In this document: positions 1 to 63,400 of the stretch, piece after piece | Layout: each line of letters opens with the position of its first letter | Position numbering within the stretch: position 1 is the stretch's first letter | Assembly (NCBI GenBank): GCA_021772435.1 | Contig: JAJFLZ010000037.1 | Coordinates: forward strand, 129,260-193,259 | Direction: 5' to 3' | DNA length: 64,000 nt | From: Chlamydiota bacterium | Lineage (GTDB): Bacteria; Chlamydiota; Chlamydiia; Chlamydiales; JACKPQ01 | The notes under the pieces: generated by a model | What the model was told of the DNA's origin: nothing | Database searches by the model: none | The model's input: the letters and a program-made list of their open reading frames with translations, nothing else | Position numbers and translations under genes: made by a program

Positions 1-2133
1 ACTAAGTTAAGAGAAATTGAAATCTTAAAAAACGGACTGATAGAGCATTTTGTTAATAAGCCACTAAAACCATGCGATGTTCTTATTCTAGCGCCTAATA
101 TCGCAGAGTATGTTCCCTATATCCAAAAAGTTTTTGGGGATCAGTGTCCATTTAATTTTGTCATTCACGATGTACCGAAACTTTTCGATCGGGCTTTTTT
201 GAAAGCATTAGAAGGACTGATGCATCTTGTTAAGAGCCGAACCTCGCCGCAGGATGTTTTGGATTTTTTTGCAAACCCGTGCGTAAAAAAACAGTGTCAG
301 ATTTCAACAGAAGATCTTTTTTTACTTGAGAAATGGGCAAAAGACTGCGGTGTGCACTGGGGTTTAGATCATGAAGATCGAGATCAACTGCTGGCTTTAC
401 CTGAGTTTGAAGACCCTATGCTAGAAAAGTCTGATTTAGGAACATGGCGATACTGTTTTGATGGATTACTTGCAGGCTTAGCTGTCATTGCAAATGAGGA
501 CGAGCCATGCGATCTACATCCACTCGATTTAGTTGAAAATTCTGTTGCAGAAACGCTTGGTAAATGGATTTGCTTGATACAGAGTTTGCAGCAATCATTC
601 GAACCTATGACTCTCACTGATTGGAAAAAAAGATTTTCATCTTTTGCAATGCAATTTATCGACCCGAGCATCGATCCCGGAGGCTATAAACTCTTTGCTG
701 ACGCATTAGAAGGTTTATCATGTCAAAATAGCTATGTATTGCCTTTTGACTCATTTTGGCAGCGCTTAAAAAACAGCTTAGAAACAAAAACGGGAACTGT
801 GCACGGCAATGATTTAAATGCAGTGCCATTTTGCTCAATGAAAACTGGGCGGGCTTGTCCTGCATCGCTAGTTTGGTGTTTAGGACTGCATGATGGAGCT
901 TACCCTAGATTGCCAACTTCAAATCCGCTTGATGAGATGGGCTATAGTGGTGATCCATGCCCTAGCCATGCAGATGAGGACCGGCATTTGTTTTTGGAGC
1001 TTGTGTTATCCGCTCGCGATACCTTCTGCGTGAGCTACCTCTCAAACTCTGACGCTGATGGAAAACCTCAGGGACTATCGATTGTGGCACAAGAGCTTTT
1101 AAATTATGTGCATTTAGACCTGGCCATTTACCACCCTAACCAAGGGTTCAACCCCTGTTATTTTTCAGGTAATTCTGATTTTAACTCATATGATAAAAAC
1201 GCATTTTCCATTGCAGCAATGGATGAGCAAAAAACAGCGCATTTGATTCCTCAATTTTTTACTAAAGCAGAAAAATCTAGAAAAATAATCCCAAAAGATA
1301 CTCATTTGAGTGTTGAAGATATTGCAGCTTTTGCAAGGCATCCTCTTGCTTATTTTATAAAAAAACGGTTAGGTGTTTACCTGGAGTATGAAGAGGAAGA
1401 TGGAGAATTTCAACTTTCTAGTTTGCACCACTTTCTAGCTAAAAAAAGCCTGTTACACGGCGTGAAGGGCGAGGTGATATCAAGTCTTCAAAATTCTGGA
1501 ATGTTGCCACTTGGTCGATTTGGTGAACTTGCGGGAAAACGTCTTCAGATTCATGCTGAAAATTTCAAGCAAAAACTGGAAGAATTTAACGTTAAAAAAT
1601 CAGATCTATTTCAAATACAGCTACATAAAGCAGATGTAAAGCAGTTTTACATTGGCGAAAAAGAAGTGGGTTTACATGCTCTTGAATTAACGTTATCTGA
1701 TGGAACTGGTGTGTCTATTCATGGAAACATAACGGATGTATCACCAGAAGGTTTATGCGTTCAGAGTAGGGCAGACCTTTCCAACCAAGTTAAAATATGG
1801 CCCCTTATGCTCATCTTGGGTGTTTTGGATGTTTGCAAGCCCCAAGCATTGTTTTTGGAGGACGGTAAAAAACTCGAAATTGATCAAACAAAGGCCAAAG
1901 AGGCTTTGCAACGTTACATAGAATATTTCTTAAGAGCTCAAATAGATCCCTCGCCGTTTATTCCTGGATGGGCAAGCGCTTTTTTAACAAAGTGTCCGAA
2001 TGATTTGAAAACTTCCGATCTTGAAGATCCTTATTTTAAATGGGCCATTGGTGATGATGATAGAATCGATAAGGCGGCATTGTTTGTACGTTGGCAAAAA
2101 GATTTGCAATACGTATTTGAGGATTTAATCTGA
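1..2133 (+). CDS. recC: RecBCD (exonuclease V) gamma subunit RecC, C-terminal ~710 codons; the 5' end lies left of the window
   Basis: Frame 1 is open from nt 1; the ORF-track start at 199 is an internal TTG. Stop TGA 2131-2133 overlaps the recB ATG (TGATG). The call rests on length and on the recC-recB-recD operon context. No sharp motif is readable by eye. Confidence 0.75.
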   Translation, partial: TKLREIEILKNGLIEHFVNKPLKPCDVLILAPNIAEYVPYIQKVFGDQCPFNFVIHDVPKLFDRAFLKALEGLMHLVKSRTSPQDVLDFFANPCVKKQCQISTEDLFLLEKWAKDCGVHWGLDHEDRDQLLALPEFEDPMLEKSDLGTWRYCFDGLLAGLAVIANEDEPCDLHPLDLVENSVAETLGKWICLIQSLQQSFEPMTLTDWKKRFSSFAMQFIDPSIDPGGYKLFADALEGLSCQNSYVLPFDSFWQRLKNSLETKTGTVHGNDLNAVPFCSMKTGRACPASLVWCLGLHDGAYPRLPTSNPLDEMGYSGDPCPSHADEDRHLFLELVLSARDTFCVSYLSNSDADGKPQGLSIVAQELLNYVHLDLAIYHPNQGFNPCYFSGNSDFNSYDKNAFSIAAMDEQKTAHLIPQFFTKAEKSRKIIPKDTHLSVEDIAAFARHPLAYFIKKRLGVYLEYEEEDGEFQLSSLHHFLAKKSLLHGVKGEVISSLQNSGMLPLGRFGELAGKRLQIHAENFKQKLEEFNVKKSDLFQIQLHKADVKQFYIGEKEVGLHALELTLSDGTGVSIHGNITDVSPEGLCVQSRADLSNQVKIWPLMLILGVLDVCKPQALFLEDGKKLEIDQTKAKEALQRYIEYFLRAQIDPSPFIPGWASAFLTKCPNDLKTSDLEDPYFKWAIGDDDRIDKAALFVRWQKDLQYVFEDLI
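1634..1652. repeat. Palindromic element copy (ATGTAAAGCAGTTTTACAT), inside recC, read in frame as DVKQFYI
   Basis: 7-bp arms ATGTAAA/TTTACAT with a 5-nt loop. It is the reverse complement of the copy at 17855-17873. Confidence 0.9.
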
Positions 2134-5100
2134 TGGAAAATTACAACTGCTTAGATCAAAACCTAAATCTTTGGGGACATCATTTTCTAGAAGCATCCGC
2201 AGGTACTGGAAAAACCTTTACGATTGAGCATATTGTTCTGCGACTCCTACTTGAAAAAGACCCTATCGATATCGATCAAATCTTGATTGTCACGTTTACA
2301 AGAGCTGCTACAAGAGAGCTGAAACAACGCATTCAAAATCGACTAAGAGAAGGGCTTAGAGCATTAGAGCAGGGTGAAATTAAATATCCGTATTTAGATC
2401 TTTGCGAAAAAGACAAGGCGTATGCGATCGAGCGTTTAAATTTAGCACTTAGCTGCTTTGACAAAGCTCAGATTTATACCATTCATAGCTTTTGTCATCG
2501 CACTTTGCTTGAAGAGGGTTTTGAAGCGGGAGTTTCGCTTGATCTATCAAACCCAGATGATTTAGGGACCTTTGCATTTCGCGAGTCGCAAATAAAAGAT
2601 TTTTTGCGAACAGGAATAAAGCCTGAGTTGTTTGCCCCCAGCCAAATTGAAAGAGTACTCCAGGCATGTGGAGGTAAAATCCAGAGATTAATTGCACGAA
2701 TTTCTCAACTGGACGATGAAGCTCAGCCTATTGCTCTACCAGTACAAGAGACGCTTAAGCAATTTAATTTAGCTTTAAATATGCTGCCTGAAAAAGCAGA
2801 GTGTGTGTTTGACGAACTTTGCCTTATCACAGGTCAATTTAAAGGAGTTTGTGATCGCAGTGGAGCATTTATATCATCAATTGAGCTACAAATTAAGCTT
2901 TTAGCTGAGATCATCGAATCGCAGAAGATCACATTGGATCAAATGGATGTGCTTTTGGGATCTAGTCCTAACTTGATCTTGCAATTGAACCTGGACAATC
3001 GAAAAAAAAGAGATTTTGAAAAGGTTTTACCTTTGTACCATGCTTGGATTCTTGCAAATATTTATCCTTTAATTGACGAGGCAATCAATCCAGATCATAT
3101 TCTTAGACATATGGGTGTGCTTTGCAAAAAACGCCTTGAAGTTGCCAAAGAAGTACATGGAGTCATCTTTCCCGATGATCTATTGCAGCAGATGCACTGT
3201 GCTTTAGAAAACCCTTTAGTTGCAGAAAAAATCAGGCAAAAATACAAAGCAGCTATTGTCGATGAATTTCAAGATACAGACTCTATTCAATGGTCGATTT
3301 TTCAAAAGTTGTTCATGTTTCCCAGTAGTGAAATTCCAGCATTTTATCTGGTTGGAGATCCAAAACAGTCCATTTATGCCTTTCGAAAAGCGGATCTTTA
3401 CACCTATTTAAAAGCGCAAGAAAAACTGGGTTTACAAAGCAGAAAAATGCTCAATACGAATTATCGAAGCTCAAAAGAGCTCATCGATGGGCTCAATACT
3501 TTGTTTGCACATGAAAAAGCCGGCAGCTGGTTACAACTTCCCTCTAAAGAGGCTTGTATTCATTATCAGCCGGTTTTATCAAGCCAAGAAACTGAGCCGC
3601 TTGGTGACGATAAAAAAGCTGTGCATATTTTAAAAATCGATGATCCTAAGGCACGTAGCGTACCTTCAAAGGATCTCGAAGAGCGAATACTTTTTCCATA
3701 CATTGCATCTGAGATCAAAGCGTTGGGCTTGGGATTTTCATCTTTTGCCATTTTGATCAAAGACCGCTATCAATCGATGCGCCTCCAGAAATATTTTAAG
3801 CGCATTGGCATTCCTGCAATCACACAAAGTGGTATTTCCGTATGCGCATCTAAGGTTTATTTATTTTTGAATGCTCTTTTAGAAGCGGTCATTAGACCGA
3901 GTAACCTTGGAGCCATTAAAAAGCTTTTATCAGCTCCTATTGTCGCTTGGAATTATCTAGATCTTTTGCCGGAAAATCATGGTCAACGCATTGTTGACAT
4001 CTCTTCAGAGCTTCATAAGTTTAAAGAGATCTGGGAAACGCAAGGGTTTGCAGCGTTTATCAATGCAGCGCAAGCTTACTCATTTGGTCACGACATGAAT
4101 TTGATTCAGCTGCTTGCAGTTGAGAAAGAAAATTATGTCGATTTCACTCACCTGATCGAACTGCTACTGGAAGAAGAAGGTAAAAGACCTCATTCGATGC
4201 GTGATTTGCATCAGGTATTTAAACGTTTTAAACAGATCAATCCAGATCACCATCCTCATATGCGACAGCGCAAAGTCTTTGATGAGAGTGCTGTCACCAT
4301 CATGACAACGCATATGAGTAAAGGACTTGAATTTGATGTCGTATTTGCATTGGGAATGGGGTGTCGACATAGTGGGCTTGCAGATCTTGAACTCGAAGCA
4401 GAAAAACTAAGACTATTTTACGTTGCGCTAACAAGAGCCAAAAGACGTGTTTATTTGCCAGTCATTAGCACATCAGGAAAGCCATCTCTGCCGTTTTGTG
4501 CGTCTCCTGCTGAAAAGTTTTTTGAGGGTTTTGAGGATTTAGAAGAGTTAACCTCGTCTAGTATAAGCGTTGAGGAACTTAATGAGACAATTCAAAGTCC
4601 CAGCTTTACATGTATAGAGAAACCCCAACTGGCTCCTCCAAAAGCGCATGGACTTCATTTTGCGAGACGCTCAATTTCGTCTTATTCTGGGCTCGTTACA
4701 TCTGAATTTGATTTCAATGCTCCAAGACAATCGAAAGATTTTACAGAATTCAATTTACATACCCTGCCAGCAGGAGCTGACACAGGAGTGCTTTTGCATC
4801 ATCTTCTGGAAAAAACCATCGAGATGGGGCTATACCGCGATAGTGAAATCACACGCATTCAAAAATTCGTGCAAAACCAATTGAAGTGCTCTAGTCTACG
4901 ACAGTGGGATGTGGTCATAGCAAAAATTATTTTTGGGATCATGCAAACTCCCATCGACGGTTTTTCCCTAAAAGATGTGCCAGAAAACGCCATCACTCAA
5001 GAGATGGAATTCTTACTTCCGATGGATACTGATTTAATGATTAAAGGATTTGTCGATTTGATTTTTCAATATGAAAACAAAACCTATATTATCGATTGGA

Positions 5101-5336
5101 AGTCAAATTGGCTTGGAGAATCAGCAGATGACTATACAGCAAAGAATTTAAGTAATGCGATGGAACACCATGAATACACCTTACAAGCGCGTATTTATGG
5201 AGCAGCACTTGTAAAATGGTTACAAAAATATGAGAGCCGGCCTGCTAGCAGTTTTTACGGCGGAGCTTATTACGTATTTTTAAGGGGAATTGAAAACGAG
5301 GAAACCCATGGTATCTACCACTATCGAAATATCTGA
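2133..5336 (+). CDS. recB: RecBCD helicase/nuclease beta subunit RecB
   Basis: 1067 aa. UvrD-type helicase motifs: EASAGTGKTFT (Walker A), AAIVDEFQDTD, YLVGDPKQSIYAFRKAD, LNTNYRS, TTHMSKGLEFDVV, LFYVALTRAKRRVYL. C-terminal PD-(D/E)XK nuclease motif: IKGFVDLIFQYENKTYIIDWKSN. Confidence 0.93.
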   Translation: MENYNCLDQNLNLWGHHFLEASAGTGKTFTIEHIVLRLLLEKDPIDIDQILIVTFTRAATRELKQRIQNRLREGLRALEQGEIKYPYLDLCEKDKAYAIERLNLALSCFDKAQIYTIHSFCHRTLLEEGFEAGVSLDLSNPDDLGTFAFRESQIKDFLRTGIKPELFAPSQIERVLQACGGKIQRLIARISQLDDEAQPIALPVQETLKQFNLALNMLPEKAECVFDELCLITGQFKGVCDRSGAFISSIELQIKLLAEIIESQKITLDQMDVLLGSSPNLILQLNLDNRKKRDFEKVLPLYHAWILANIYPLIDEAINPDHILRHMGVLCKKRLEVAKEVHGVIFPDDLLQQMHCALENPLVAEKIRQKYKAAIVDEFQDTDSIQWSIFQKLFMFPSSEIPAFYLVGDPKQSIYAFRKADLYTYLKAQEKLGLQSRKMLNTNYRSSKELIDGLNTLFAHEKAGSWLQLPSKEACIHYQPVLSSQETEPLGDDKKAVHILKIDDPKARSVPSKDLEERILFPYIASEIKALGLGFSSFAILIKDRYQSMRLQKYFKRIGIPAITQSGISVCASKVYLFLNALLEAVIRPSNLGAIKKLLSAPIVAWNYLDLLPENHGQRIVDISSELHKFKEIWETQGFAAFINAAQAYSFGHDMNLIQLLAVEKENYVDFTHLIELLLEEEGKRPHSMRDLHQVFKRFKQINPDHHPHMRQRKVFDESAVTIMTTHMSKGLEFDVVFALGMGCRHSGLADLELEAEKLRLFYVALTRAKRRVYLPVISTSGKPSLPFCASPAEKFFEGFEDLEELTSSSISVEELNETIQSPSFTCIEKPQLAPPKAHGLHFARRSISSYSGLVTSEFDFNAPRQSKDFTEFNLHTLPAGADTGVLLHHLLEKTIEMGLYRDSEITRIQKFVQNQLKCSSLRQWDVVIAKIIFGIMQTPIDGFSLKDVPENAITQEMEFLLPMDTDLMIKGFVDLIFQYENKTYIIDWKSNWLGESADDYTAKNLSNAMEHHEYTLQARIYGAALVKWLQKYESRPASSFYGGAYYVFLRGIENEETHGIYHYRNI

Positions 5337-6795
5337 AGTTGATCAGGCATTTGCTGAAATGATCATGAGGCGCTATGACCTAAATGACAGCTGGCTACGA
5401 AGTTTTTTAGCTGAGATGATGGCAAAAACGCGTCATGGCCACATATGTATAGACATATCTCAAGAAACTATTGCGCGGTTACCTGATTGTTTACTTGCAA
5501 AAGGTGACCTAGCTGATCGTTTGCTCAAAGTAAGAGGACCTCATCTATATTTCCATCGCTATTGGCATCTAGAAACAAAGCTCCTCTTGCCAATAGCCAG
5601 AAGACTAAAGCAATGTACCAAGATGGAAAGCGCTGCAATTGAAGGCCTGAATCAAATGCAGTGTCATGCAGTTTCAAGCGCTCTTACTCACGCGCTCACT
5701 TTGATATCAGGTGGGCCTGGTACGGGAAAAACACACACGATTTCCCACATTGTCAAACAGTTTTCAGGTAAGCGGATAGCGCTTACAGCACCCACTGGAA
5801 AAGCTGTTAGCAAGTTAAGTGAAAGTATTGTAAACCCAGAATTTTTCTTTGGAACGCTTCATAAGCTCCTTGGAATTAAGCGTGCTAAAGATGTACTGAA
5901 AACGCCCTCTTTACTTCCATATGATGTTGTCATTGTCGATGAATGCTCCATGGTTGATATTGGTATGTGGGGAACGCTTTTCGAAGCTTGCTCTTCTGAG
6001 ACTAAATTGATTTTGGTTGGGGATGCAAACCAACTGCCTCCGGTTGAAGGGGGAAACATTTTTCAGCAATTATGCGCTTTTTTCAAAAAAACAAAACAGA
6101 CAGGCTATAGCGAACTCACAACCTGTATGCGAACAGATAAGAAAGATTTGCAAGCTATAGCAAGCCTAATACTCAAAGGCTCATTTGAAGACCTTCCACG
6201 CATAGATATTCCTCCCGTACGGGAGCTAGTTAATATTGTAAACCCAGTGTTTACTCGTAAACTAGACGACCACATATCAACTGAGCTGCTGCTTATGGAA
6301 GCAAAAAAGTTCCAGATTTTGAATGCACTTAGAAGAGGACAGCTAGGGTGTGATGCGCTAAATCGTGCACTATTTCAGATCATCAAAGGCAATATACAAA
6401 AGAATGATCGCTTAGCAATTCCCATTATTGTAACCCGTAATGCTCCTGATTTAGGTCTTAGTAATGGAGATATGGGTATTTGGATTCATGGACCAGAAGA
6501 ACAGGTCCTATTTAAGGATCAGATTATACCGAAGGCACTGGCGCCACCCTTTGAGCTTGCTTATATTTTATCTGTCCATAAGAGCCAGGGTAGTGAGTAT
6601 GAGGATGTTTATCTGCTGCTACCTCCGGGATCTGAGCATTTTGGTCGAAGTGTGTTATACACTGCTGTCACTCGGGCTCAAAGCCAATTGACAATTGCAG
6701 GAAGCTGTGAGACTGTGCAATTGTGCGCTCAAAATAATGTGATGCGCCTTGCTGGTTTATCTGAAAGACTAGGAGAAATACTATGCGTAGATTAA
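5308..6795 (+). CDS. recD: RecBCD alpha subunit RecD (SF1 helicase)
   Basis: Motifs ISGGPGTGKTHT (Walker A), DVVIVDECSMVD (Walker B), LILVGDANQLPPVEGG, SVHKSQGSEYEDV, LYTAVTRA. I prefer ATG 5308 (GAGGA 5 nt upstream) over the ORF-track TTG at 5290. Either start overlaps the recB 3' end. Confidence 0.9.
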   Translation: MVSTTIEISEVDQAFAEMIMRRYDLNDSWLRSFLAEMMAKTRHGHICIDISQETIARLPDCLLAKGDLADRLLKVRGPHLYFHRYWHLETKLLLPIARRLKQCTKMESAAIEGLNQMQCHAVSSALTHALTLISGGPGTGKTHTISHIVKQFSGKRIALTAPTGKAVSKLSESIVNPEFFFGTLHKLLGIKRAKDVLKTPSLLPYDVVIVDECSMVDIGMWGTLFEACSSETKLILVGDANQLPPVEGGNIFQQLCAFFKKTKQTGYSELTTCMRTDKKDLQAIASLILKGSFEDLPRIDIPPVRELVNIVNPVFTRKLDDHISTELLLMEAKKFQILNALRRGQLGCDALNRALFQIIKGNIQKNDRLAIPIIVTRNAPDLGLSNGDMGIWIHGPEEQVLFKDQIIPKALAPPFELAYILSVHKSQGSEYEDVYLLLPPGSEHFGRSVLYTAVTRAQSQLTIAGSCETVQLCAQNNVMRLAGLSERLGEILCVD

Positions 6796-8231
6796 CGAAT
6801 CTTTTGTGTTTAATTACATTTTTATACATTCCCTTATTCGCTGGCACTCGAGATAAGCTTACGATTTTAAAAAATGATATCGAACGCATTATTCACCATG
6901 CTGAAAAAGGCGCAGTTGTAGGTATTGATGTTGTTTCTGTCAAAACAAATGAGCGGATCTACAGCAAAAATCATAAACAACGATTTATCCCTGCCAGCTT
7001 GATTAAAATTTTAACCCTAGGTGCTGCGCTCGATATTCTAGGTATTGACTATGCCTATAAAACGGGCATTTATACCGATGGGAAAATAGAAGATGGCATT
7101 TTGCATGGCAATTTGTACCTGAAAGGGAGCGGAGACCCTAGTTTAGTGACCAATGATTTAGAGCACTTGGTTAAAAATTTACATATGATTGGTATTGAAG
7201 AAGTGAAGGGGTCACTTGTTGTCGATGCTTCTGCTTTTGATTCAACAGCGCTGGCTCCGGGATGGATGGTTGAAGATACGACATTTGTTTCATCAGCCGT
7301 TCCAAGCGCGCTTTCAATCAATCAAAGCTGTTTTGACATCTGGATCAGACCGGCTAATGCTGAATCAGCACCTGCTGTTGTTTTAAGCGATCTGCCTAAC
7401 GTTGAATTGCCATTCCTTATTGATAACCAGACATTGACGCTTTCAAATATTCAAGATAGTAAGCAATTAGAAATTACGACTGACAACAAAGGCAAACAAG
7501 CTGTTATCCGAATAGCCGGAAATTTGAATTTGCAAAGCGCGCCACAGCTGCGGCGCGTTCCAATAAAAGATCCGGCGATCATGGCTGGATCGATTATAAA
7601 AGAGTTTTTTAAAAGACATCAAATGACTTTCCGCGGAGCCGTGCAAGAAGGCATGACACCTGTCAATGCCTTGGTTCTTGCAGAGCACTCCTCAGACTCA
7701 CTGCTATCGATCGGTCAAAAAATGTGCAAGGAATCGGATAATTTTTTTGCACATTGCTTATTTAAGACTTTAGGCAAAGAAGTTCAAGGTCCTCCAGGTT
7801 CATGGCAGTCTGGAAGCCAGGCTTTGCGAGAGTTTTTAGCAAATAAGGTGCGACTAGAACCATCTGACATGGTTCTTTTAGATGGAAGTGGTTTATCGAG
7901 ATACAATTTAATGACACCCGCGCAAATTGTCGAATTTTTATCTTGGGCTCATCACAATGTCTCAATTGGCTCAGAGTTTAAAACGACATTTTCCATGGCA
8001 GGCATTGATGGGACATTAAAAAACCGTCTGCAGCCATTGCAGGGAAAACTGCGTGCTAAAACAGGTACGATGACAGGTGTTAGCAATCTTTGTGGATATG
8101 TTTTCACAAAAGACGGCGAAGAGTTGGCTTTTACGATTATGGTTAACGGATCGACAAAAGAATCTAAAGAAATATATAAGCAACTTATTGACCCCATTTG
8201 CATGGAACTTGCCAATTTTACAAGGCGTTAG
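6783..8231 (+). CDS. dacB: D-alanyl-D-alanine carboxypeptidase/endopeptidase, PBP4 (peptidase S13) family
   Basis: Hydrophobic N-terminus LLCLITFLYIPLFAG. Penicillin-binding triad: PASLIKILT (SxxK), KESDNFF (SxN), RAKTGTMTG (KTG). AGGAG lies 7 nt upstream of the ATG. The start overlaps the recD end by 13 nt. Confidence 0.8.
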   Translation: MRRLTNLLCLITFLYIPLFAGTRDKLTILKNDIERIIHHAEKGAVVGIDVVSVKTNERIYSKNHKQRFIPASLIKILTLGAALDILGIDYAYKTGIYTDGKIEDGILHGNLYLKGSGDPSLVTNDLEHLVKNLHMIGIEEVKGSLVVDASAFDSTALAPGWMVEDTTFVSSAVPSALSINQSCFDIWIRPANAESAPAVVLSDLPNVELPFLIDNQTLTLSNIQDSKQLEITTDNKGKQAVIRIAGNLNLQSAPQLRRVPIKDPAIMAGSIIKEFFKRHQMTFRGAVQEGMTPVNALVLAEHSSDSLLSIGQKMCKESDNFFAHCLFKTLGKEVQGPPGSWQSGSQALREFLANKVRLEPSDMVLLDGSGLSRYNLMTPAQIVEFLSWAHHNVSIGSEFKTTFSMAGIDGTLKNRLQPLQGKLRAKTGTMTGVSNLCGYVFTKDGEELAFTIMVNGSTKESKEIYKQLIDPICMELANFTRR

Positions 8232-9001
8232 TTTTTTGTATTAAGCAGCATTTGCTCTAGAATGTATTTTTTTCCCCAAAGGTGGACGTAATGGACGATA
8301 ACAGTAGATGGGTCTTGCGCATGGCGTAGCCTAGCGTTGTATCCCATCCGCATGCGATGAACTGGGAGACGGTGACGATGGATAATGCGAGATAGAGCGT
8401 CTTGATCTCCTAAATAATTTGTATGGTGTGAAAGAACCTCGTCTTTCCATAAGTCAATAATTTTACAGCCCTGTTTGTACCCAATCACGCCGCTGTTGTA
8501 GACGATTTCTCCAGGCAGCAAATAACCTTTAGATTCTAGCAAACTTTGATAATCAGGCATCTCTGGCACAATTGTAAAGCCAGTCGAATTGTCAATAAAA
8601 CTAAATATGTCATCTAACTTACCTTGGATCTGACAATCTAGATCAATCCAGATTGTCTTTTCAAAAGGTGTATGGGCTAAGCCAAAAGGCTTTAGCATCC
8701 AGATGGGATGAATGTTTTGAAGTTTTCCAGAGTAAAGCTCTTGCCAGGAGGTTTCTTTTTTAGGGCAAAGGGTTTTGTTAAATAGTTTTAGTAGAGAGGT
8801 CTTGTCAAAGTCAAGTACTGTACCGATCTGTTTGGCTTTTGTTAAGCCGTTTTTCGATAGTCCAAAGTCGCAGATAGCAATCGGGTAATCACAATATTTT
8901 TTGTAATGTGCATACCACCAGCCTAACATCCACTCTTGTGTTTTATCTGCACCAATGATGACTCCTTGAGAAGCGATAAGATGAGAATTCCACATAACCA
9001 T
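8228..9001 (-). CDS. Putative glycosyltransferase, GT8-like (nucleotide-diphospho-sugar transferase fold)
   Basis: 257 aa with IWIDLDCQI (DxD), NSGVIGY, GDQDALS and a late HYVH..GKK motif. This order matches GT8 enzymes. The stop codon overlaps the dacB stop on the opposite strand. Confidence 0.45.
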   Translation of the reverse strand: MVMWNSHLIASQGVIIGADKTQEWMLGWWYAHYKKYCDYPIAICDFGLSKNGLTKAKQIGTVLDFDKTSLLKLFNKTLCPKKETSWQELYSGKLQNIHPIWMLKPFGLAHTPFEKTIWIDLDCQIQGKLDDIFSFIDNSTGFTIVPEMPDYQSLLESKGYLLPGEIVYNSGVIGYKQGCKIIDLWKDEVLSHHTNYLGDQDALSRIIHRHRLPVHRMRMGYNARLRHAQDPSTVIVHYVHLWGKKYILEQMLLNTKN

Positions 9002-9118
9002 TATTTTTTTAATACTGAAAAAATAATTATATGGAAAGAGTTCAGGTTATTTATACCGAAGTAGATTTAAAGACAGAAGTTAATCAAAGGAGCTCTTCAA
9101 ATTTTTTAATTGAAACAA

Positions 9119-9143: not shown

Positions 9144-9188
9144 GTAGTGAAGACGGAAAATTTGTACGAGAGTCTACGCTGTTAAAAA

Positions 9189-9555: not shown

Positions 9556-10029
9556 ATGTCGATAGCAAAGATAAAAATTGAAAAGGGATTGATCGTATGG
9601 GCTCTGCTTTTAGGTGTGAGCTTCGGAATGGTCTGTTGGTATGGCTGTCAATTTCTTAAACAATTTTATATATACAAAACCCTGACTGCCGAAACACCTG
9701 CTCAAGTAACAGCATGGGGTATCGATAAGGTCAAAGAGGGTGAATTCATTGTATATGCTAAATACACTTATTGGTTGAACGAGCAAGCTTTTACTGGGAC
9801 GACAGCATTTAAAAAAATAACTTTTACTAATCAATTGGCTGCAAAAGAGCATCTGCAGAATTGGAAAGCCGACAACTGGATTACTTATTATAACCCTAAG
9901 AAGCCGTCAATATCTACGCTCCAAAGACCCTTTCCATTAAAAATATTACTACACATGCTGATTGGTATTGCCGTATCGATTTATTTTCTGTACTTGAAGC
10001 GGTATCTAGCTGCGTTTCGCGTTGCGTAG
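9556..10029 (+). CDS. Hypothetical membrane protein (TM, ~100-aa soluble domain, TM; DUF3592-like topology)
   Basis: 157 aa. N-terminal TM segment LIVWALLLGVSFGMVCWYG and C-terminal TM segment ILLHMLIGIAVSIYFLYL. No catalytic motif. Confidence 0.5.
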   Translation: MSIAKIKIEKGLIVWALLLGVSFGMVCWYGCQFLKQFYIYKTLTAETPAQVTAWGIDKVKEGEFIVYAKYTYWLNEQAFTGTTAFKKITFTNQLAAKEHLQNWKADNWITYYNPKKPSISTLQRPFPLKILLHMLIGIAVSIYFLYLKRYLAAFRVA

Positions 10030-10929
10030 AAGTGCTGCTTTTAAATGTTTATCATGTAAAGCCACGATATTTTTAAAAAGAGTTATCCATATTTTTTTAG
10101 TTTTTTGTCTTTTTCCTTTTTTTTCTAAATGGGTTAAAAGGTCGGAAAAATCAGGATCACGCCATATACGAAACAAGAGATCTCCACTGAAAAAAACGGG
10201 CCAATTTTCAATTCTGTCAGTCAAAGATTTGGGGGACTTTTGAAACATATCTTTTTTAAAATAATAGTGTTGCGTTAGATGAATTGGGCATTTTTTGCCA
10301 ATGTAAAACCGCTTTACATCTGAGATGAGCTCGAGTTGGTCGTATATCCACCCTTTTCCCCTAGGGTCAATGTTTGTATAGTAGCTTGGGAATTTTCGCA
10401 GATGCCTTTCAGAATCGGATAATCTTCGCTTATTAAAATTTTTTTCATGCAAAATCCAAACCAATAAATACCCCGTTCTTGCATACGCTTTTTGTCTGGC
10501 TCTCACTTCAAATAGTGAGATCGGTGAGCATTGGACTTCAAAAATGAGTTTTTTTGATGGCACGACGACATCAGCAAAGCGGTTAACTTCAGGAAAGTAA
10601 TGTTCCATATGTGCATCGGGAAATATTTTTTTTAACCGGAGCTGGGTTTGTAGGTGGTAAGGACTTTTGCTGTGATTTGTGCAGTTTGTTTTTGGATTAG
10701 GGTGGAAAAAGTGCAGCTGATATTGCTTTCCTCCTCGCAAACGAACAGTTCCCTGGCACCCGGGACAGGTGTAGTCTTTCCCTTTTTGGGCATAAAGCGC
10801 AATCACGCTTTTTCCGTCTTCTAGCGCTATTAGTTGCATAGATAACCGATTGTAAAGAAATGTTTGTTTTTTTGGTGCTAAATATATATGATCCGGGGGA
10901 TTGACAAAAAGCGCCTCAATGCGAGACAA
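10006..10929 (-). CDS. coiA: CoiA-like competence protein family (zinc-ribbon plus PD-(D/E)XK-like nuclease core)
   Basis: YTCPGCQGTVRLRGGKQYQLHFFH, SPYHLQTQLRL, EHYFPEVNRFADVVV, LIFEVQCSPIS, GYLLVWIL. These follow the motif order I recall for streptococcal/Bacillus CoiA (CPxCG..V.LR.G....HF.H; ES.EH; E.YLPEI.Q.ADVLV; EVQCSPLS; GY.V.WLL). Confidence 0.7.
   Translation of the reverse strand: MSRIEALFVNPPDHIYLAPKKQTFLYNRLSMQLIALEDGKSVIALYAQKGKDYTCPGCQGTVRLRGGKQYQLHFFHPNPKTNCTNHSKSPYHLQTQLRLKKIFPDAHMEHYFPEVNRFADVVVPSKKLIFEVQCSPISLFEVRARQKAYARTGYLLVWILHEKNFNKRRLSDSERHLRKFPSYYTNIDPRGKGWIYDQLELISDVKRFYIGKKCPIHLTQHYYFKKDMFQKSPKSLTDRIENWPVFFSGDLLFRIWRDPDFSDLLTHLEKKGKRQKTKKIWITLFKNIVALHDKHLKAALLRNAKRS
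10301..10319. repeat. Palindromic element copy (ATGTAAAACCGCTTTACAT), inside the coiA-like gene, read in frame as DVKRFYI
   Basis: The 32 nt at 10292-10323 match the reverse complement of 1630-1661 at 29/32. Confidence 0.9.
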
Positions 10930-10968: not shown

Positions 10969-12630
10969 ATGAGCAAACCCAGTTTTGGAACCTTTGACCC
11001 TCAGCATCAACAAAAAATTGAAGAACTTGTTGCAATTGCTAAAGATCAAGGGTTTGTCACCTATGAAGAAATAAACGAAATTCTTCCCATGACTTTCGAC
11101 TCCCCTGAGCAGATTGACCACGTGTTGATCTACCTCAGTGGAATGGATATTCAAATCCTCAATCAAGCGGAAGTGGATAGACAAAAAGAGCGGAAGAAAG
11201 AAGCCAAAGAGATGGAAGGCTTACCGAAGCGCACTGAAGGATCATCGGATGATCCTGTACGCATGTATCTCAAAGAGATGGGATCGGTTCCTCTACTCAC
11301 GCGTGAAGAAGAAGTTGAAATTTCAAAGCGTATTGAAAAAGCGCAGCTTCAAATTGAAAGAATTATCATGCGTTTTCGCTACTCTGCTAGAGAAACCATT
11401 TCAATCTGTCACTACCTTGTTTCAGGAAAAGATCGCTTCGACAAGATCATTGCAGAAAAAGAAATCGAAGACAAAGCTGTCTTTTTAAAACTACTTCCAA
11501 GATTACGTGAACTGTTGCTCGAAGAAGATCAAATGCTAGAGTCACAACTTGTTCAATTGCGTAATAACAAGCTGAAAAAAGTTGATCGCGTTAAAATCAC
11601 TGAAGAAATCGAAAAGAGCCGTATTCGTACCCAAGCTTATCTTCGCCGCATGCACTTTCGCCATAATATTATTGACGACTTTGGTGAAGTCATCATGGCA
11701 GCGTATGAGCGATTTACCGCTCTAGAAAAAGAAATTCAAGAATTGGTGCCCAGAGCAGAGAAAAACCGCTTTGCAGCAGCTAAACTTAAGGCAGCACAGC
11801 GCCGGCTTTACAAGCGCGAGCTAGCTGCAGGCCGCACACTAGACGAGTTTAAAAAAGACGTGCGTATGTTGCAACGTTGGATGGATAAGAGCCAAGAAGC
11901 CAAGCGCGAAATGGTCGAATCCAACCTCCGTCTCGTTATCTCGATTGCGAAAAAATACACTAACCGTGGTTTGTCTTTCCTCGACCTGATTCAAGAAGGC
12001 AACATGGGCCTTATGAAAGCGGTAGAAAAGTTTGAATATCGCCGAGGTTACAAATTTTCAACTTATGCCACTTGGTGGATTCGCCAAGCAGTCACACGAG
12101 CGATTGCAGATCAAGCTCGCACGATTCGTATTCCAGTGCACATGATCGAAACGATCAATAAGGTGCTGCGGGGTGCAAAAAAGCTCATGATGGAGACAGG
12201 CCGTGAACCCACTCCAGAAGAGCTGGCTGATGAGCTTGGTTTAACTCCTGAGCGTGTTCGCGAGATTTACAAAATTGCTCAACATCCGATTTCCCTCCAG
12301 GCTGAAGTTGGCGATAATGGTGAAAGTACGTTTGGTGACTTTTTAGAAGATAAAAATACGGAATCACCATCAGAAGCAACTGGTTATGCGATTTTGAAGG
12401 ACAAAATGGGTGAGGTTCTCTCAACACTTACAGATCGAGAGAGAACAGTCCTCATCGAGCGCTTTGGCCTGCTCGATGGTAAACCTAAAACTCTGGAAGA
12501 GGTCGGCTTAAGATTCAACGTGACAAGAGAGCGCGTGCGTCAGATTGAGGCTAAAGCGCTACGTAAAATGCGCCATCCTACGCGAGCTAAACACTTAGAA
12601 GCTTTCATGGAAATGATCGAACACGAGTGA
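10969..12630 (+). CDS. rpoD: Primary RNA polymerase sigma factor (sigma-70/sigma-66)
   Basis: [41 protein letters not shown] (region 2). [30 protein letters not shown] (region 4.2). AGGAG lies upstream of the ATG. Confidence 0.95.
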
Positions 12631-12672: not shown

Positions 12673-12745
12673 TGGAGCGTAACGGAGTCGAACCGTTGAC
12701 CTCAACAATGCCATTGTTGCGCTCTACCAACTGAGCTAACGCCCC
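12673..12745 (-). tRNA. tRNA-Ala (anticodon GGC)
   Basis: Reverse complement: GGGGCGTTAGCTCAGTTGGTAGAGCGCAACAATGGCATTGTTGAGGTCAACGGTTCGACTCCGTTACGCTCCA. It has a 7-bp acceptor stem with the G3:U70 Ala identity pair, anticodon stem CAACA/TGTTG, loop AT-GGC-AT, T-loop GGTTCGACTCC and discriminator A. The 3' CCA is not encoded. Confidence 0.93.
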
Positions 12746-32301: not shown

Positions 32302-32303
32302 CC

Positions 32304-33488: not shown

Positions 33489-33498
33489 GAGAAACAAC

Positions 33499-34294: not shown

Positions 34295-34358
34295 AATTTT
34301 ATTATTATATAGATGGGTTAAAAAGAGAAAAAGAAAAACTCATTAGGAGGAAAAGCTA

Positions 34359-38450: not shown

Positions 38451-38470
38451 GTAAAACCGCGCCTACATCT
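38449..38470. repeat. Degenerate palindromic element copy (ATGTAAAACCGC-GCC-TACATCT) between the VWA gene stop and the rsmD start
   Basis: The left arm and loop are identical to the 51-kb copy. The right arm carries GCC in place of TT. It overlaps the rsmD ATG by 2 nt. Confidence 0.6.
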
Positions 38471-51001: not shown

Positions 51002-51028
51002 GCAGATGTAAAACCGCTTTACATCTGC
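51002..51028. repeat. Longest palindromic element copy (GCAGATGTAAA-ACCGC-TTTACATCTGC) in the tolB-pal intergenic gap
   Basis: 11-bp perfect arms. It starts 3 nt downstream of the tolB stop codon on the minus strand. Confidence 0.92.
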
Positions 51029-53325: not shown

Positions 53326-54038
53326 TTGAGATCGACTTGGCGGTATTGCAGTTCTACTTGAGATGTGAGATAGCTGCCAAAATCTTCCATCTCTTTGGAG
53401 TAATGCTTAATGGTATTTTTTAAGTAGTTGTAGCCGACTAAAGCCGGAATGGCAATAAGTAAACCCAGCACGGTCGTTGTTAGGGCAGTCGATAGTCCGC
53501 CTAAAAGAGCGGTGCTTGATCCAAGCGATGCGCCGCCTTGCAACTCGTTAAATGCGACTAAAATTCCCCACACCGTTCCAAGTAAACCTAAAAAAGGCGC
53601 TAACGTTACAATCGTTGATAAAATGAAGAGGTTTTTCTCTAGCTCTTTACAGCTCTTTGCAATGGAGGCACTGACATCATTTTGCACAGCATGGACATCG
53701 GTATTCGATAAGTAAACAGGTGCATTTGAACTCTTCTGAAAATATTGGTTTTTAGCTAAAAAATCCTGGGTTTTTTTCTTGAGTGAAAAATAGATGCTTT
53801 TAAAGGGATGGGGGGTGTCTGTCTTTGGCATGTGATGCTCTTTCAAGTGAAAAAGATTCTCTTTTTGCTCTTTGATAAAGCTTGCAAATTGCATCGATCC
53901 CGCTTCAATTTTTTTTAGCAGAAGAAACTTATGCACTAATATGACCCACGACACGATCGAAAGGGCGAATAAACTTAGAAAAATTAACTTACCAAAGCCG
54001 TCTGCTGTTGCAAAAGCTGTTAAAAAAGGACTCATCAT
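53322..54038 (-). CDS. tolQ: TolQ/ExbB proton-channel protein
   Basis: 238 aa with 3 TM segments. APFLGLLGTVWGILVAFNEL is the MotA/TolQ/ExbB signature. Confidence 0.9.
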   Translation of the reverse strand: MMSPFLTAFATADGFGKLIFLSLFALSIVSWVILVHKFLLLKKIEAGSMQFASFIKEQKENLFHLKEHHMPKTDTPHPFKSIYFSLKKKTQDFLAKNQYFQKSSNAPVYLSNTDVHAVQNDVSASIAKSCKELEKNLFILSTIVTLAPFLGLLGTVWGILVAFNELQGGASLGSSTALLGGLSTALTTTVLGLLIAIPALVGYNYLKNTIKHYSKEMEDFGSYLTSQVELQYRQVDLK

Positions 54039-54079: not shown

Positions 54080-54955
54080 ATGAAGCATCCATCCATCGCA
54101 AGCATCATCAGTTTTTGCTCATTAGATGAGCACTTTTTGCCCTATGCTATCGAAGCAGCTTTGCCTTTTTCCGATCAAATATTGATCTCGCTATGTGATC
54201 ATCGCTTTGATGGATCAAAAGAAAATAACCAAAAATATTTCGAAACCATCTCCGAATGCACATTTGTCGAATATGCTTTTTCTGATCGGCTTTACGGCAC
54301 AGAGCAGTTCATAGATCCAGGCAGTCTGCTTTATCACCACCACTGGCATAACACTTCCCGACTTGTCCCCACTTATTTTCTGGATTCCCAAATCGAATGG
54401 GTTCTATTTTTAGATGCTGATGAGATCATCGATACGGATCGTTTCATGCAAATGACCTGGGAAGAAGATGTTTACCGCTTAGCCTCTTATTGGTATTTCA
54501 GAGAAACTTTTTTACAAGCAACGACTTGGCCAGATAGCGCCGTTTTAATGCCCCGTCAGTATGTAACCCCAGACACTTTATTACATCCCAAAGAGAGATC
54601 GGGATGGATCAAGTCGCTTGGTGGTCAAAACATGGTGCTTGGTCAAGATCAAAAACCGCTTGTCCATCACTACAGCTGGGTAAGGTCAAAGCAAGAGATG
54701 CTTCAAAAGGTGAATTGCTGGGGGCATGGCAGTGAAGATAATTGGGAAGCACTCATCGAAAAAGAAATGGAACAAGACTTTTCCGGTACAGATTTTGTCT
54801 ACGGTTTTGATTACAAAAAAGTAAAACCCTTCATCGATCCCTTTAAACAGAAAGTTTATCCACAAGGCAATCCTTCAGTGGTGCACCGCGTGACACCCAA
54901 AGATATTTACAACTTAGAGGTACAAAGATGTTTTTTGACTCCCACGCTCACTTAA
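54080..54955 (+). CDS. Putative glycosyltransferase (DxD-containing, GT2/GT17-like)
   Basis: 291 aa. VLFLDADEII (DxD). The late motif VHHYSWVRSKQEMLQKVNCWGHGSE resembles the GT17-type (G.H.S......I..K...F.H.E) pattern. Weak call. Confidence 0.4.
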   Translation: MKHPSIASIISFCSLDEHFLPYAIEAALPFSDQILISLCDHRFDGSKENNQKYFETISECTFVEYAFSDRLYGTEQFIDPGSLLYHHHWHNTSRLVPTYFLDSQIEWVLFLDADEIIDTDRFMQMTWEEDVYRLASYWYFRETFLQATTWPDSAVLMPRQYVTPDTLLHPKERSGWIKSLGGQNMVLGQDQKPLVHHYSWVRSKQEMLQKVNCWGHGSEDNWEALIEKEMEQDFSGTDFVYGFDYKKVKPFIDPFKQKVYPQGNPSVVHRVTPKDIYNLEVQRCFLTPTLT

Positions 54956-55689
54956 CAGCAGATAGTGTCTATCCGCAAATCGATCAAATCCTAGAGCGCG
55001 CCAAAGCAGCCGGCATCGATCGCATCGCCAATATTTGCACTGACCCCAAAACGTTAGAAAGAGGCCTTACCCTATCTGAGCAAAACCCCTGGGTTTACAA
55101 TGTCGGTGCTACAACACCACATGATGTCGACAAAGAAGGAGCTGAGGCTTTTCCCATCTTTGAAAAAGCAGCTCGCGCTGGCAAACTTGTGGCAATTGGC
55201 GAAACTGGCCTGGACTACCACTACGAGCATTCAAAAAAGGAGTCGCAGCAAGATTATCTCAAACGGTATTTTGCCTTAGCGCAAGAGCTTTCTCTTGGAG
55301 TTGTGATCCATTGTCGTGATGCCTTTGATGATTTTTTCGCCTTAGCCGATAAGCATTACGCTCAAAAAAACCTGGTTTTACATTGCTTTACAGGAACGAT
55401 GGATGAGGCAAAAGAGGTCATCAAGCGCGGCTGGTATTTATCTCTTAGTGGCATTGTGACCTTCAAGCGATCCGAAGTGTTACGGGAAGTTGCCAAAATC
55501 ACACCTCTTGAGCAGCTGCTGATTGAAACCGACACACCTTACCTCGCTCCTGTTCCTTATCGCGGCAAGCAAAATGAACCCGCTTACGTGGTAGATACCG
55601 CCAGATGTATCGCTGCAGAAAAAAACATCGACCTAGAAACACTTGCGACAACCACATACCAAAACGCCTGCCGTTTTTTTCAGATCTGA
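54928..55689 (+). CDS. tatD: TatD-family metal-dependent hydrolase/DNase (YcfH-like)
   Basis: FFDSHAHL, IGETGLDYHY, VIHCRDAFDD, LHCFTG, LIETDTPYL. Confidence 0.92.
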   Translation: MFFDSHAHLTADSVYPQIDQILERAKAAGIDRIANICTDPKTLERGLTLSEQNPWVYNVGATTPHDVDKEGAEAFPIFEKAARAGKLVAIGETGLDYHYEHSKKESQQDYLKRYFALAQELSLGVVIHCRDAFDDFFALADKHYAQKNLVLHCFTGTMDEAKEVIKRGWYLSLSGIVTFKRSEVLREVAKITPLEQLLIETDTPYLAPVPYRGKQNEPAYVVDTARCIAAEKNIDLETLATTTYQNACRFFQI

Positions 55690-55762
55690 TCTGAATTTGT
55701 CTTTAAATAATTCCCATGATAGTGCTTTTGGCACTCTAAAGAATGGATGGCTTAGGTTCACG

Positions 55763-60437: not shown

Positions 60438-63400
60438 ATGCGTAAGTTTTATGTGATATTAGCGCTTCCACTCGTTCTATTTGGAGCCCCAAAAGGCTTC
60501 AAGTCTTCTTGTGCAACCCTCATTCAAGACGGCACTAAGACAATGGTCAAGTCTGGCAAGTCTGCCATTATTTCGTGGGATGATTTTTCAATTGGCAAGG
60601 GCGAACATGTTCATTTTTTACAAAGTTCACATAAATCAAAAGTTTTAAATCGCGTCACCGGAAATAAACTAAGCGAAATTCACGGCACGCTTGAATCGAA
60701 CGGGCAGGTCTACTTGATCAATCCAGCTGGTGTACACATCGGCAAAAGTGGACGGATTGATTGCGCAGCATTTTACGCCTCGACACTTGAGATGAGCGAT
60801 GAGGATTTTTTAGCAGGCAAGTTGAATACGCAAGGGTGCGTAGAGGGTAGCATTAAGTGCGAAGGCGTCATTGATGCAAGCCGTATCGAAGAAGTCGATG
60901 GCAAGATTTTACTGCTGGCGGAAGAGACGTATGTGAACGGTACGCTAAATGCCAAAACCGTGCATGTACTTGGTGATCAGGTACAGCTGGGTGAAGAAAC
61001 GAGGATTTGTGCTCCCGGAGGAGAAGTTCTCATCGGTGGCGATAAGCAGGGCCAGAACCCAAATATTCGCAATGCAATGAATGTGACCATGGAAAAGGGT
61101 TCTGTTGTCAAAGCTGACGCTGGGCAAAAAGGCAACGGCGGGAAGGTGATCTACTGGTCGGATCAAGCGACCGCTGTAGCTGGGTTTACATCAGTACGTG
61201 GTGGAGAAGAATTTGGCGATGGCGGCTTTGTTGAAGCCTCAGGCGCTGAAGTGCTAGAGTATACAGGGCGTAGTGATCGCAGAGCTCCTAACGGCAGGTG
61301 TGGCCAAATCTTGTTAGACCCATCTAATATCAATATCACAAGTGTTCCTCCTACTGATGGTGCATTTGTGGGAACAAGTCCGATAAAATTTTATCCATCC
61401 TTAGCAAGTTCTGATATTTTGAACACGGACTTGGAAGCAGAACTTGCTATGGGCGATGTATTGATTAACACAGCTTTTGGAGCTTTTGCATCTGCTGGTG
61501 AACTAACAGTAGTTGCTGGATTTACTTGGGGTACATACAATACAAGTCTTACACTTCGTGCAGATAACAACCTCACATTTGCTAGCAGTCCTACAATTAC
61601 CAATACTGGTTCGGGGCTTTTCCGCGCGGTTGCCGGTAGGTTTCTTAACCAGGTAAACGGCATCATAGAGAATACTCATACGGGCTCTGGGAATTTCGAG
61701 GGAATCGAATTGAGTAACCTTGGCACGGCTGCAGGCAGTTATCCTGGCGTCTTTATCGATGGCATTGTTCGGTCAGTCGAGGGGAATATTGTTTTCTCGG
61801 GCATTGGTAGAGGGGGTGCGGGAGGAATTCCGTTCTCAAAAGGAGTTACAGTAGACAATGGGCAAGTGTCTTCTACGGGTACCGGCGTTGCAGCTGCGTC
61901 AATTACCATGGTTGGTACTGGGGGAACGCTTATAAATGATAACGATGGCGTGGCTATAGAGCGTCAATTTATGGGGCTATTTCCAGTCGTATCAACTGTG
62001 GATGGAGACATCACATTAATAGGCAACGCAATTGCTTCGACCTTTATTCTCAATCAAGCAGTTTCAATATCCAACGTAGGATCTGTCCTGTCGACAGGAT
62101 CCGGTGATGTCATTATGGATGGAACAGTTACTGGATCCCCTACAGGAGGTGCAAACGAGGGTGTCATCATCAACTCAGGAGCAACAGTTGCCCTAAGTGG
62201 AACTGGTGAGCTTTTCATGACTGGAGTTGGTGGTGGCATAGCAGGATTAGAAAATCACGGCGTGCATTTTGCAGGGTCTGGTTTTGGCGGTGCTTCGATG
62301 ACCTCAACGGCATCAGGTGATATTACAATCATTGGGACAGGGAGAGCTCTTGCGACTTTAGATAGCTCTGGTGTTGCCTTAACCCGCAATGCTGTTTTAG
62401 AGACAGATTCTGGTACCATTGATATTACAGGTGTTGCGTTGGGAAGTGGAACTGAACACCATGGAGTCGATGTGGATAGCGGGGTCATTCGTACTAACAC
62501 TTACGGCACGATTTTGATTGATGGAACAGCGACATCTAGTTCTACAGCATCAGATAGCAGTGGGGTGACTGTTAGATCAGCGACAGCGTTTATACTTACA
62601 AATACAGGACCCATGACGATCAGTGGAACAGCCAGGGCTGGTGGAAGCACTAACTACGGCATTAGCGTTACAAATGCAGGTACAATTGAATCAGTTTCTG
62701 GCGCAACGACCCTCACTGGCTTAGGGAGTGATACTGGTATCAATGATAATTCAGGGATTATTATCACAGATGTAGGCTCAAATATAACGTCGATGTCAGG
62801 TGATATTACGATGACGGGAACTGCTAGAACCAGTGGAACAGACAATCACGGCATTTACTTTACGTCTATGGGAGAAACTTCCACATCCACAGGAAGCATT
62901 ACAATGACGGGGATGGGTTCTTCATCTTTCTACGATGTTTCACATGGTATTTTCATCGATAGTTTAGGTTCAGCTGTCACTACAGCGGGCTCTCCTTATT
63001 CATCGATCGAAATGACGGGGACATCTGGTGATTTCCCAGATAGTTACGGTATTAATGTTTCTGGCTCTTTAACAGCTATAACAGCTGGGGATTCGCCAAT
63101 TACGATGACGGGAATGGCTCCTGTGACTGAAAAGGGAATTTTAGTAAGCATCGCAAGTATTACAAACGGGAATGCTCCTCTAACGCTGCGCACATTGAGT
63201 GATATCGATATTGACATGGGAGCGATGGTCACAAGTGCAGGTGATGTGCTGCTTGACTCTTGTCGCGATATCAACGTAACAGGTGATGTCACATCTACGA
63301 CAATTGCGTCATCGGGTGCTGATGTTTTGATGATCGCAGATCGAGATATAGCACTTTTACCAGGATCTGGCACTGCTGTTATAGACTCAGCTACTGGAAA

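Follow-up and report, generated by a model that had tools for sequence, protein, structure and literature searches.

The DNA analyzed here is a 64-kb stretch of contig JAJFLZ010000037.1 (hereafter the window). Its gene content identifies it as part of an uncultured member of the Chlamydiota, and the homologues of its genes agree with this assignment. A short DNA word is repeated throughout the window, both as single copies and within perfect 19-bp palindromes, and this word is the subject of the present work. The window begins with the 3' part of recC followed by recB and recD (199-6795, plus strand), so that the recBCD genes named in an initial annotation of the sequence could be confirmed. 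The coiA-like gene of the same annotation (10006-10929, minus strand) is also real, as shown by its match to the CoiA nuclease domain (PF06054). Other recognizable components are rpoD, a block of type II secretion system (T2SS) or pseudopilus genes (27130-34766, plus strand), sdh, folB/folKP and genes for ExbD and a member of the MotA/ExbB family. We have compared the window with the syntenic loci of four sister lineages (L004/L416, L006/L415, L007/L414 and L089). RecB of these lineages is 43-48% and RecC 36-39% identical to the proteins of the window, and recBCD was found at all of their loci.

The word TGTAAANCC occurs 25 times in the window (16 copies on the plus strand and 9 on the minus strand), whereas dinucleotide-preserving shuffles contain 1.75 copies on average and 5 at most. 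This excess of ~14-fold is larger than the ~8-fold initially estimated; the 19 copies then listed were all correctly placed, and another six had been overlooked (8573, 22820, 48293 and 48696 on the plus strand, 11804 and 55091 on the minus strand). Alignment of the copies gave WTGTAAASCCRG as the full word, the two halves of which are statistically linked, with zero information beyond its borders. In an unbiased k-mer scan the family of this word ranked at the top at each k from 8 to 12, as illustrated by GTAAAGCC (18 copies vs. 1.9 expected), ATGTAAAGC (16 vs. 1.0) and TGTAAACCCAG (6 vs. 0.03). The 12-mer TTGTAAACCCAG is present in five exact copies (0.01 expected) and in eight when up to one mismatch is allowed (0.25 expected). 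Four of the exact sites had been reported before and a fifth is located at 55089-55100 (minus strand), while the 11-mer TGTAAAGCCAG, previously noticed at two sites, actually occurs four times. The single copies have a conserved 3' extension, CCRG, that is missing from the arms of the palindromes. Overall the density of the word is ~0.3-0.8 copies per kb. The copies have no common flanks and their host genes differ, so paralogy is not the cause of the excess.

The palindromes are indeed built on the same core, as initially proposed. Six perfect copies of the form ATGTAAA-RCNGY-TTTACAT are found in the window (0.01 expected), where the pattern ATGTAAA-N5-TTTACAT has no instance with one mismatch. 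Their geometry is fixed, an overlapping inverted pair with a 7-5-7 arrangement that can be written ATGTAAAGC-N-GCTTTACAT; ATGTAAAAC is possible in one arm and never appears in both. They appear about once per 10 kb. Of the six, two agree with the earlier description as inverted pairs located at the ends of genes; the other four are intragenic and are the most conserved copies. One of these, ATGTAAAGCAGTTTTACAT, is in recC (1634-1652), where it encodes DVKQFY and has been kept in place, codon for codon, in the sister genomes. The one in coiA (10301-10319) encodes (D/N)VKR(F/L)YIG and is kept in L004, L006, L007 and L089, and that in a Glyphos_transf glycosyltransferase gene (17855-17873) encodes NVKQFYMN and has the same codons in L004; the Glyphos_transf genes of L089 and L414 also hold a palindrome. 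The fourth intragenic copy, the perfect palindrome ATGTAAAGCCGCTTTACAT (42815-42833), lies in a TPR/YfiO-like ORF (41828-44614, minus strand). The two copies at gene ends are found immediately 3' of the stop codon of a gene at 23994-26240 on the minus strand (23975-23993) and 6 nt past the stop codon of the ORF 51031-52341, a putative tolB on the minus strand (51006-51024). We also noted that in L132, L135 and L203 a palindrome stands immediately after the rpoD stop codon, the place of a tRNA gene in the window.

In RecC and CoiA the codons occupied by the palindrome do not differ between the window, L004, L006 and L007, and in the glycosyltransferase they do not differ between the window and L004; in L089, too, each of these three genes has a palindrome. 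Three unrelated proteins are read in one frame through the palindrome, giving (D/N)VK(Q/R/P)(F/L)Y(I/M). At the corresponding site the outgroup CoiA and the glycosyltransferase paralogues have different residues and no indel, from which it follows that these palindromes arose by substitution. In RecC the clade has ~15 extra residues around the palindrome (window 1540-1700) compared to the outgroup L090, and here the indel is ambiguous.

The copies of the word are found in all three reading frames, in both orientations and in unrelated genes. The peptides initially read from some of them (IVNP twice, KLGLQS, IWVYNV and VAGFTS) are correct, and the conclusion drawn at the time, that selection acts on the DNA and not on the protein, is borne out by codon-aware null models. 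When synonymous codons were shuffled within each ORF, which preserves both the proteins and the codon usage, TGTAAA[GC]CC was still enriched ~6-7-fold in either orientation (antisense 16 vs. 2.4 expected, sense 4 vs. 0.65). The 11-mer gave 11 copies vs. 0.76 expected antisense and 3 vs. 0.21 sense. Neither codon usage nor a few paralogous families, the two ways in which the excess might have been explained away, can therefore account for it. The 4:1 excess of antisense copies is what codon usage predicts, which argues against a signal in mRNA and fits a force that acts symmetrically on both strands of the DNA and is filtered by coding constraints. When codon order was shuffled the expected counts were lower still than with the synonymous shuffle, and the proteins have therefore been partly molded to hold the word. 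An artifact of codons or proteins was rejected, since the excess survives both shuffles, and so was a signal at the RNA level, the enrichment factor being the same in sense and antisense. A sigma-70 promoter with TTTACA as the -35 element was discarded as well, given that a -10 element was located 16-18 nt downstream at 5 of 54 sites, vs. 3% of control TTTACA sites.

The word is also non-polar with respect to replication. GC skew is positive throughout the window. In eight loci together, GTAAASCC is found 36 times on the G-rich strand (by inference the leading one) and 35 times on the C-rich one, and a 75:25 distribution is rejected (P<0.0001). No polarity of the kind shown by Chi or KOPS was found, which argues against both, in line with what the strand ratio in the window had already suggested in the initial annotation.

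All four sister lineages have the palindromes, and the word is enriched in them in the same way. Pooling 205 kb from five genomes and two genomic regions, there were 55 copies of TGTAAASCC vs. 3.6 expected and 38 of the 11-mer vs. 0.32. The word is therefore a property of the clade, conserved and enriched in sister genomes (a check that had been suggested from the start), and it comes in dialects: the window prefers the C-type TGTAAACCCAG, L007 and L089 prefer TGTAAAGCCAGAA (...GCCAGAA) and some phages TGTAAATCC. The palindrome must be spread beyond the five genomes studied, since a scan of metagenomes retrieved many further chlamydial fragments, some of them from lineages with 51-55% GC. The word was absent from the Chlamydiota outgroups L090 and L091, which have the same synteny, from L009 and L011-L013, Chlamydiota with RpoD 80-83% identical (L010 was borderline, 3 vs. 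0.42 expected), and from Simkania negevensis (L419). In 75 non-chlamydial control loci (1.28 Mb) it occurred 8 times, with 8.1 expected. Apparent words in L011, L012 and L419 were rejected as local repeats or as not significant; L012 (9590-11533) and L011 (6018-9978) contain clustered local repeats of AAAAGTAACAGGAT... and GAGGTCTA..., which are longer elements and not dispersed words. As a further observation on synteny, a CoiA-family gene (PF06054) adjoins rpoD in the window and in L004, L006, L007, L089, L090 and L091. Searching the literature in full text, we came across no account of this word, of a chlamydial Chi or of any uptake sequence in chlamydiae.

The turnover of the sites was followed by mapping the copies onto alignments of orthologous proteins. 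Within the window 27 of the 29 non-palindromic copies (full and partial) are inside ORFs. The word is turning over: most single copies are lineage-specific and fall in variable segments of the proteins. Examples of lineage-specific copies are the two of TTGTAAACCCAG in recD (5829-5837 and 6237-6245, both on the plus strand). A few are common to lineages and located at conserved peptides, such as RRLYKR in RpoD (TTGTAAAGCCGG, 11804-11812, minus strand, with a copy at the same position in L006) and HGFTRY in MutY (GTGTAAAGCCGT in a mutY-like gene, 20914-20922, minus strand, with a copy at the same position in L004). The copy ATGTAAAGCCAC in coiA (10055-10063, plus strand) also has a same-position counterpart in L006. 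Other single copies on the plus strand are TTGTAAAGCCAG at 8573-8581 and again at 40503-40511, ATGTAAAGCCAG in an aminotransferase gene (13399-13407) and at 22820-22828, ATGTAAACCCGG at 17559-17567, ATGTAAAGCCGG at 48293-48301, ATGTAAAGCCGA at 48696-48704 and TTGTAAACCCAG in the putative tolB ORF (51240-51248). On the minus strand there are ATGTAAACCCAC in recC (1668-1676), TTGTAAACCCAG in recB (3428-3436) and in a tatD-like gene (55091-55099), ATGTAAAGCCCA at 45753-45761, ATGTAAAGCCGG in sdhA (58385-58393) and ATGTAAACCCAG at 61182-61190. Two variants were seen at 38450-38458 (TGTAAAACC, plus strand, intergenic) and 55374-55382 (ATGTAAAACCAG, minus strand). The partial copy GTAAAGCCAG, in which the leading T is missing, is at 393-400 (minus strand), and similar partial copies are located at 16763-16770, 24039-24046, 26022-26029, 46268-46275 and 54288-54295 on the minus strand and at 53459-53466 on the plus strand.

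The distribution is not even. In the window and three sister genomes the conserved T2SS block is poor in the motif: its 33.8 kb contain 5 sites, compared to 53 in the 94.9 kb that flank it (P = 2e-4). In the window its sole copy is the weak variant TGTAAATCC (29671-29679, plus strand). In L007 three DDE transposase genes are inserted in the syntenic region (2409-8200), and the word is absent over these 5.8 kb.

An unexpected finding was the presence of the palindrome in viral sequences. Matches to the pattern ATGTAAAGCNGYTTTACAT number at least 120 among the viral stretches of IMG/VR and at least 120 among those of metagenomes, compared to 15 and 2 viral matches for two control palindromes of the same composition. 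Many of the matching viral contigs are 35-43 kb long and have the genes of a tailed phage, with a major capsid protein of the N4-gp56 type, a portal, a terminase and tail proteins; in some there are also genes for ParB-like, replication-initiator and RecE/RecT-like proteins. In these phage loci 85% of the palindromes are outside ORFs, typically wedged between tandem genes, at a median of 8 nt past the stop codon and often ~11 nt ahead of the next start. Intergenic palindromes are found 0-8 nt after stop codons in host and phages alike. The non-palindromic 11-mer TGTAAAGCCAG is enriched too, with 17 copies vs. 0.7 expected in viral loci and 13 vs. 0.4 in metagenome loci (control loci 0 vs. 0.4), and 28 of 34 such copies are intragenic, in either orientation. 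When the capsid family was sampled without bias (80 loci, 1.37 Mb), the distribution proved patchy, with palindromes in 12 of the 80 loci and at most six single copies per 21 kb; the TGTAAATCC dialect was found in two loci of this sample.

Regarding the host of these phages, tetranucleotide usage gave no link to the chlamydial clade, and no cultured relative of the N4-gp56-type capsid protein was found. An ORF with similarity to sigma region 4 is weakly closest to chlamydial RpoD (64-72% identity vs. 54-61% for other phyla). We observed that such small proteins, encoded for example in L268 (9135-9878, plus strand) and L257 (530-1216, minus strand), combine a sigma-70 region-4-like segment with a long charged C-terminal tail. 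The viral loci L212-L411 represent a large group of ~40-kb tailed-phage contigs that lacks cultured relatives; at E<=1e-5 their capsid protein has over 1000 relatives, with identities of 89-94% for the 120 listed. One contig of 111 kb (L129, JGI24890J29729_1000045) contains a phage-like stretch with the palindrome and may represent an integrated form or a larger relative, from which the phage host could be learned.

Our tentative interpretation, and the mechanism that we consider the most likely, is that the word behaves as a self word similar to a DNA uptake signal in an uncultured environmental clade of Chlamydiota; the site of a DNA-binding protein is nearly as likely. A surface or periplasmic part of the uptake machinery would bind double-stranded DNA bearing the word, motif-bearing DNA of the own clade would be taken up and recombined preferentially, and this bias, which we infer as the driving force, would spread and maintain the word wherever coding constraints allow. 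The inverted pairs would then be a way of fitting two copies into minimal space. The single copies are best matched by the uptake sequences of Neisseriaceae and Pasteurellaceae because of their length, their enrichment, their intragenic location in any frame and orientation, the lack of polarity, the dialects of the clade, the turnover and the preference for weakly constrained segments. Both the DNA uptake sequence (DUS) of Neisseriaceae (GCCGTCTGAA and its dialects) and the uptake signal sequence (USS) of Pasteurellaceae (AAGTGCGGT) resemble the chlamydial word as signals of 9-12 nt, enriched from 10- to more than 100-fold and found about once per 1-3 kb. They too are intragenic in all frames and both orientations, have no strand polarity, characterize a family-level clade with dialects, accumulate at sites where the proteins tolerate them and form inverted pairs. 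They are present as well in a temperate phage of the host, since HP1 of H. influenzae has 17 USS (0.6 expected); a phage can thus bear the signal as densely as its host does. Carriage by phages is for this reason compatible with an uptake signal, provided that the phages persist in their hosts or recombine with them. The differences are that we deal here with another phylum and a presumably obligate intracellular organism, that the uptake bias and its receptor are putative, that the pairs are overlapping (7-5-7), without a T-run, mostly intragenic and ultra-conserved, and that the word is 2-3 times less dense than the signals of H. influenzae or Neisseria. On this reading the chlamydial word would extend a familiar class of genomic signals to another phylum, where it takes an uncommon palindromic form and is linked to phages. 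As a context for uptake the window itself contains coiA, a transformation-specific nuclease gene, and a pseudopilus system. In a preprint of 2026 CoiA is presented as a D-loop resolvase of transformation that is confined to Bacillota, and ComEC-dependent DNA uptake has been documented in Chlamydia (PMC8936141).

It is possible, if rather doubtful, that we are looking at a true uptake or self-recognition signal in the Chlamydiota, the first beyond two proteobacterial families, common to ~40-kb phages or phage-plasmids that persist in the hosts or exploit competence to enter them. Several facts speak against uptake. Uptake signals are known only from those two proteobacterial families, so that the prior is low. 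The palindromes are the weak point, with their fixed geometry, their extreme conservation, their mostly intragenic location in the host and their dominance in phage spacers. The intragenic ones are more conserved than the single copies and have no degenerate copies, which points to a constraint stronger than, or different from, a drive by uptake, and in their overlapping geometry the CCRG at the 3' end of the word is overwritten. A strictly lytic phage is not expected to collect uptake signals, and the lytic T7-like Pasteurella phage PHB02 has no USS; the capsid-bearing contigs studied here are all at most 42.6 kb and none was seen integrated. As to the genes of transformation, none for ComEC, ComEA or DprA was detected in the ~200 kb sampled, and CoiA is not specific to the carriers of the motif, being present in the outgroups L090 and L091, which lack the word.

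These same properties of the palindromes (geometry, conservation and dominance in phage spacers) suit a dimeric sequence-specific DNA-binding protein, and the presence of both word and palindrome in phage contigs keeps this explanation alive. The sites would bind an abundant protein, as a dimer on the palindrome and as a monomer on the single word, with a role in the biology of the chromosome or of phage genomes, such as nucleoid organization, Noc/ParB-like functions, silencing or the marking of self DNA for defense or repair, and the phages would use or evade it. We rate this as possible but uncertain. In its favor are the perfection of the palindromes, devoid of one-mismatch copies and preserved with identical codons across deep divergence, the repetition of the same palindrome between tandem phage genes far above the controls, the enrichment of the single 11-mer in the same phage loci and the ParB-like, replication-initiator and sigma-region-4-like proteins that some of the phages encode. 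On the other hand, no candidate protein was identified, the 3' extension of the single copies is missing from the palindrome arms, and the fast turnover and the dialects of the single copies fit a drive better. The density is also far from that of parS, NBS, SBS or matS, which amount to tens of sites per genome and not to ~0.3-0.8 per kb. Phage contigs that repeat one site every few kb between tandem genes bring to mind the stoperators of mycobacteriophages (the repressor sites of L5 and Bxb1); these, however, are asymmetric, phage-specific and not known from host genes, whereas here the site and its single form fill the genes of the host. The TyrR box of enterobacteria, TGTAAA-N6-TTTACA, has the same arm hexamers, but the spacer is 5 here and not 6 and the sites are not at promoters, so that the resemblance is one of sequence only.

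Much less probable is that the word is a Chi-like sequence of the chlamydial RecBCD, protecting or repairing self DNA and copied by the phages to escape the enzyme. RecBCD is encoded at all sister loci as well as in the window, core genes contain an excess of the word, the Chi sequence of Chlamydia is not known (PMC8936141), and phage mimicry would make sense of the presence of the word in the viral contigs. As Chi does, the word differs between lineages. Yet polarity is a defining property of Chi (PMC8022716), and the word shows none relative to the presumed leading strand. With 11-12 nt and an enrichment above 100-fold it is also longer and far more enriched than the known Chi sites. Overlapping inverted pairs and palindromic forms are not a feature of Chi, and there are outgroups with RecBCD that do not have the word.

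We consider equally improbable that the word is a functionless, neutral by-product of sequence-biased repair or gene conversion, similar to very-short-patch repair, acting on any DNA in the cell, phages included. Such a process would produce what we see in terms of equal frequency in both orientations, intragenic location, absence of polarity and sharing between host and phage DNA. However, the known effects of this kind involve contexts of 4-5 nt and not an 11-12-mer, and neither the perfect palindromes held for long at the same codons nor the amino-acid changes that fit the word would be explained. A highly iterated intragenic word spread over a large clade, with a function long debated, has a precedent in HIP1 of cyanobacteria (GCGATCGC). 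HIP1 differs in being an 8-bp palindrome, while the frequent form here is a non-palindromic 11-12-mer and the palindrome a 19-bp composite; the sequence and the phylum are unrelated.

It is quite unlikely that the palindromes work as RNA hairpins (REP-like stabilizers of 3' ends, processing sites or terminators) of which the single copies would be decayed halves. The predicted hairpins are stable (-8 to -15 kcal/mol, z-scores from -5 to -11) and the location of the intergenic copies just after stop codons, in host and phages, would be appropriate. Against this, four of the six palindromes are intragenic, none was called by terminator prediction or has a T-run, and an Rfam scan of the window gave a single match, the tRNA just downstream of rpoD (12673-12745, minus strand), leaving the palindromes unmatched. 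The sequence of the stem itself is invariant, beyond what pairing would demand. An asymmetry of the arms of the G.U type, seen in 5 of 5 cases in the window, is not kept in the RecC palindrome of L006, and in the phages the variant arm is random with respect to transcription (16 vs. 19). Moreover, the enrichment of the single copies is the same whichever their orientation, and they possess a 3' extension that the palindromes lack. The REP/BIME elements associated with RAYT resemble the palindromes in their frequency of ~1 per 10 kb and in the position of the intergenic ones right after stop codons, but REP are extragenic and imperfect, while most of the palindromes here are intragenic with invariant arms, and no RAYT gene was seen.

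Least probable of all is a miniature mobile palindromic element, like the Rickettsia palindromic elements or MITEs, which would suit an obligate intracellular organism, palindromes in frame inside genes and the ~15 extra RecC residues relative to one outgroup, but is contradicted by the substitutions without indel in CoiA and the glycosyltransferase, by the lack of decayed copies, flanking target duplications or common flanks, by a length of 19 bp that is not divisible by three and by single copies that arise by point changes at differing sites.

If the word served in uptake or self-recognition, environmental chlamydiae would select DNA of their own kind within host cells where foreign DNA abounds, and sequence-specific transformation would extend to a new phylum. 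In that case the word should favor uptake when added to constructs, offering a handle for genetic manipulation, and would help to nominate the receptor. Were it a Chi or the site of a DNA-binding protein instead, a different question would be answered, in the former case the identity of Chi in Chlamydia (PMC8936141). Either way, it is a sharp marker that ties widespread ~40-kb phage contigs to a cellular lineage, and it can be used for binning and classifying chlamydial and phage contigs.

A last observation concerns the part of the window that is devoid of the word, a stretch of 14.5 kb that comprises the T2SS block and continues to ~40500. The T2SS block also has a higher GC content (0.47 vs. 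0.425). Four of the five copies of an over-represented 8-bp palindrome, TCGCGCGA (0.8 expected; 30338, 31023, 31282, 36696 and 60345), are located within this stretch.

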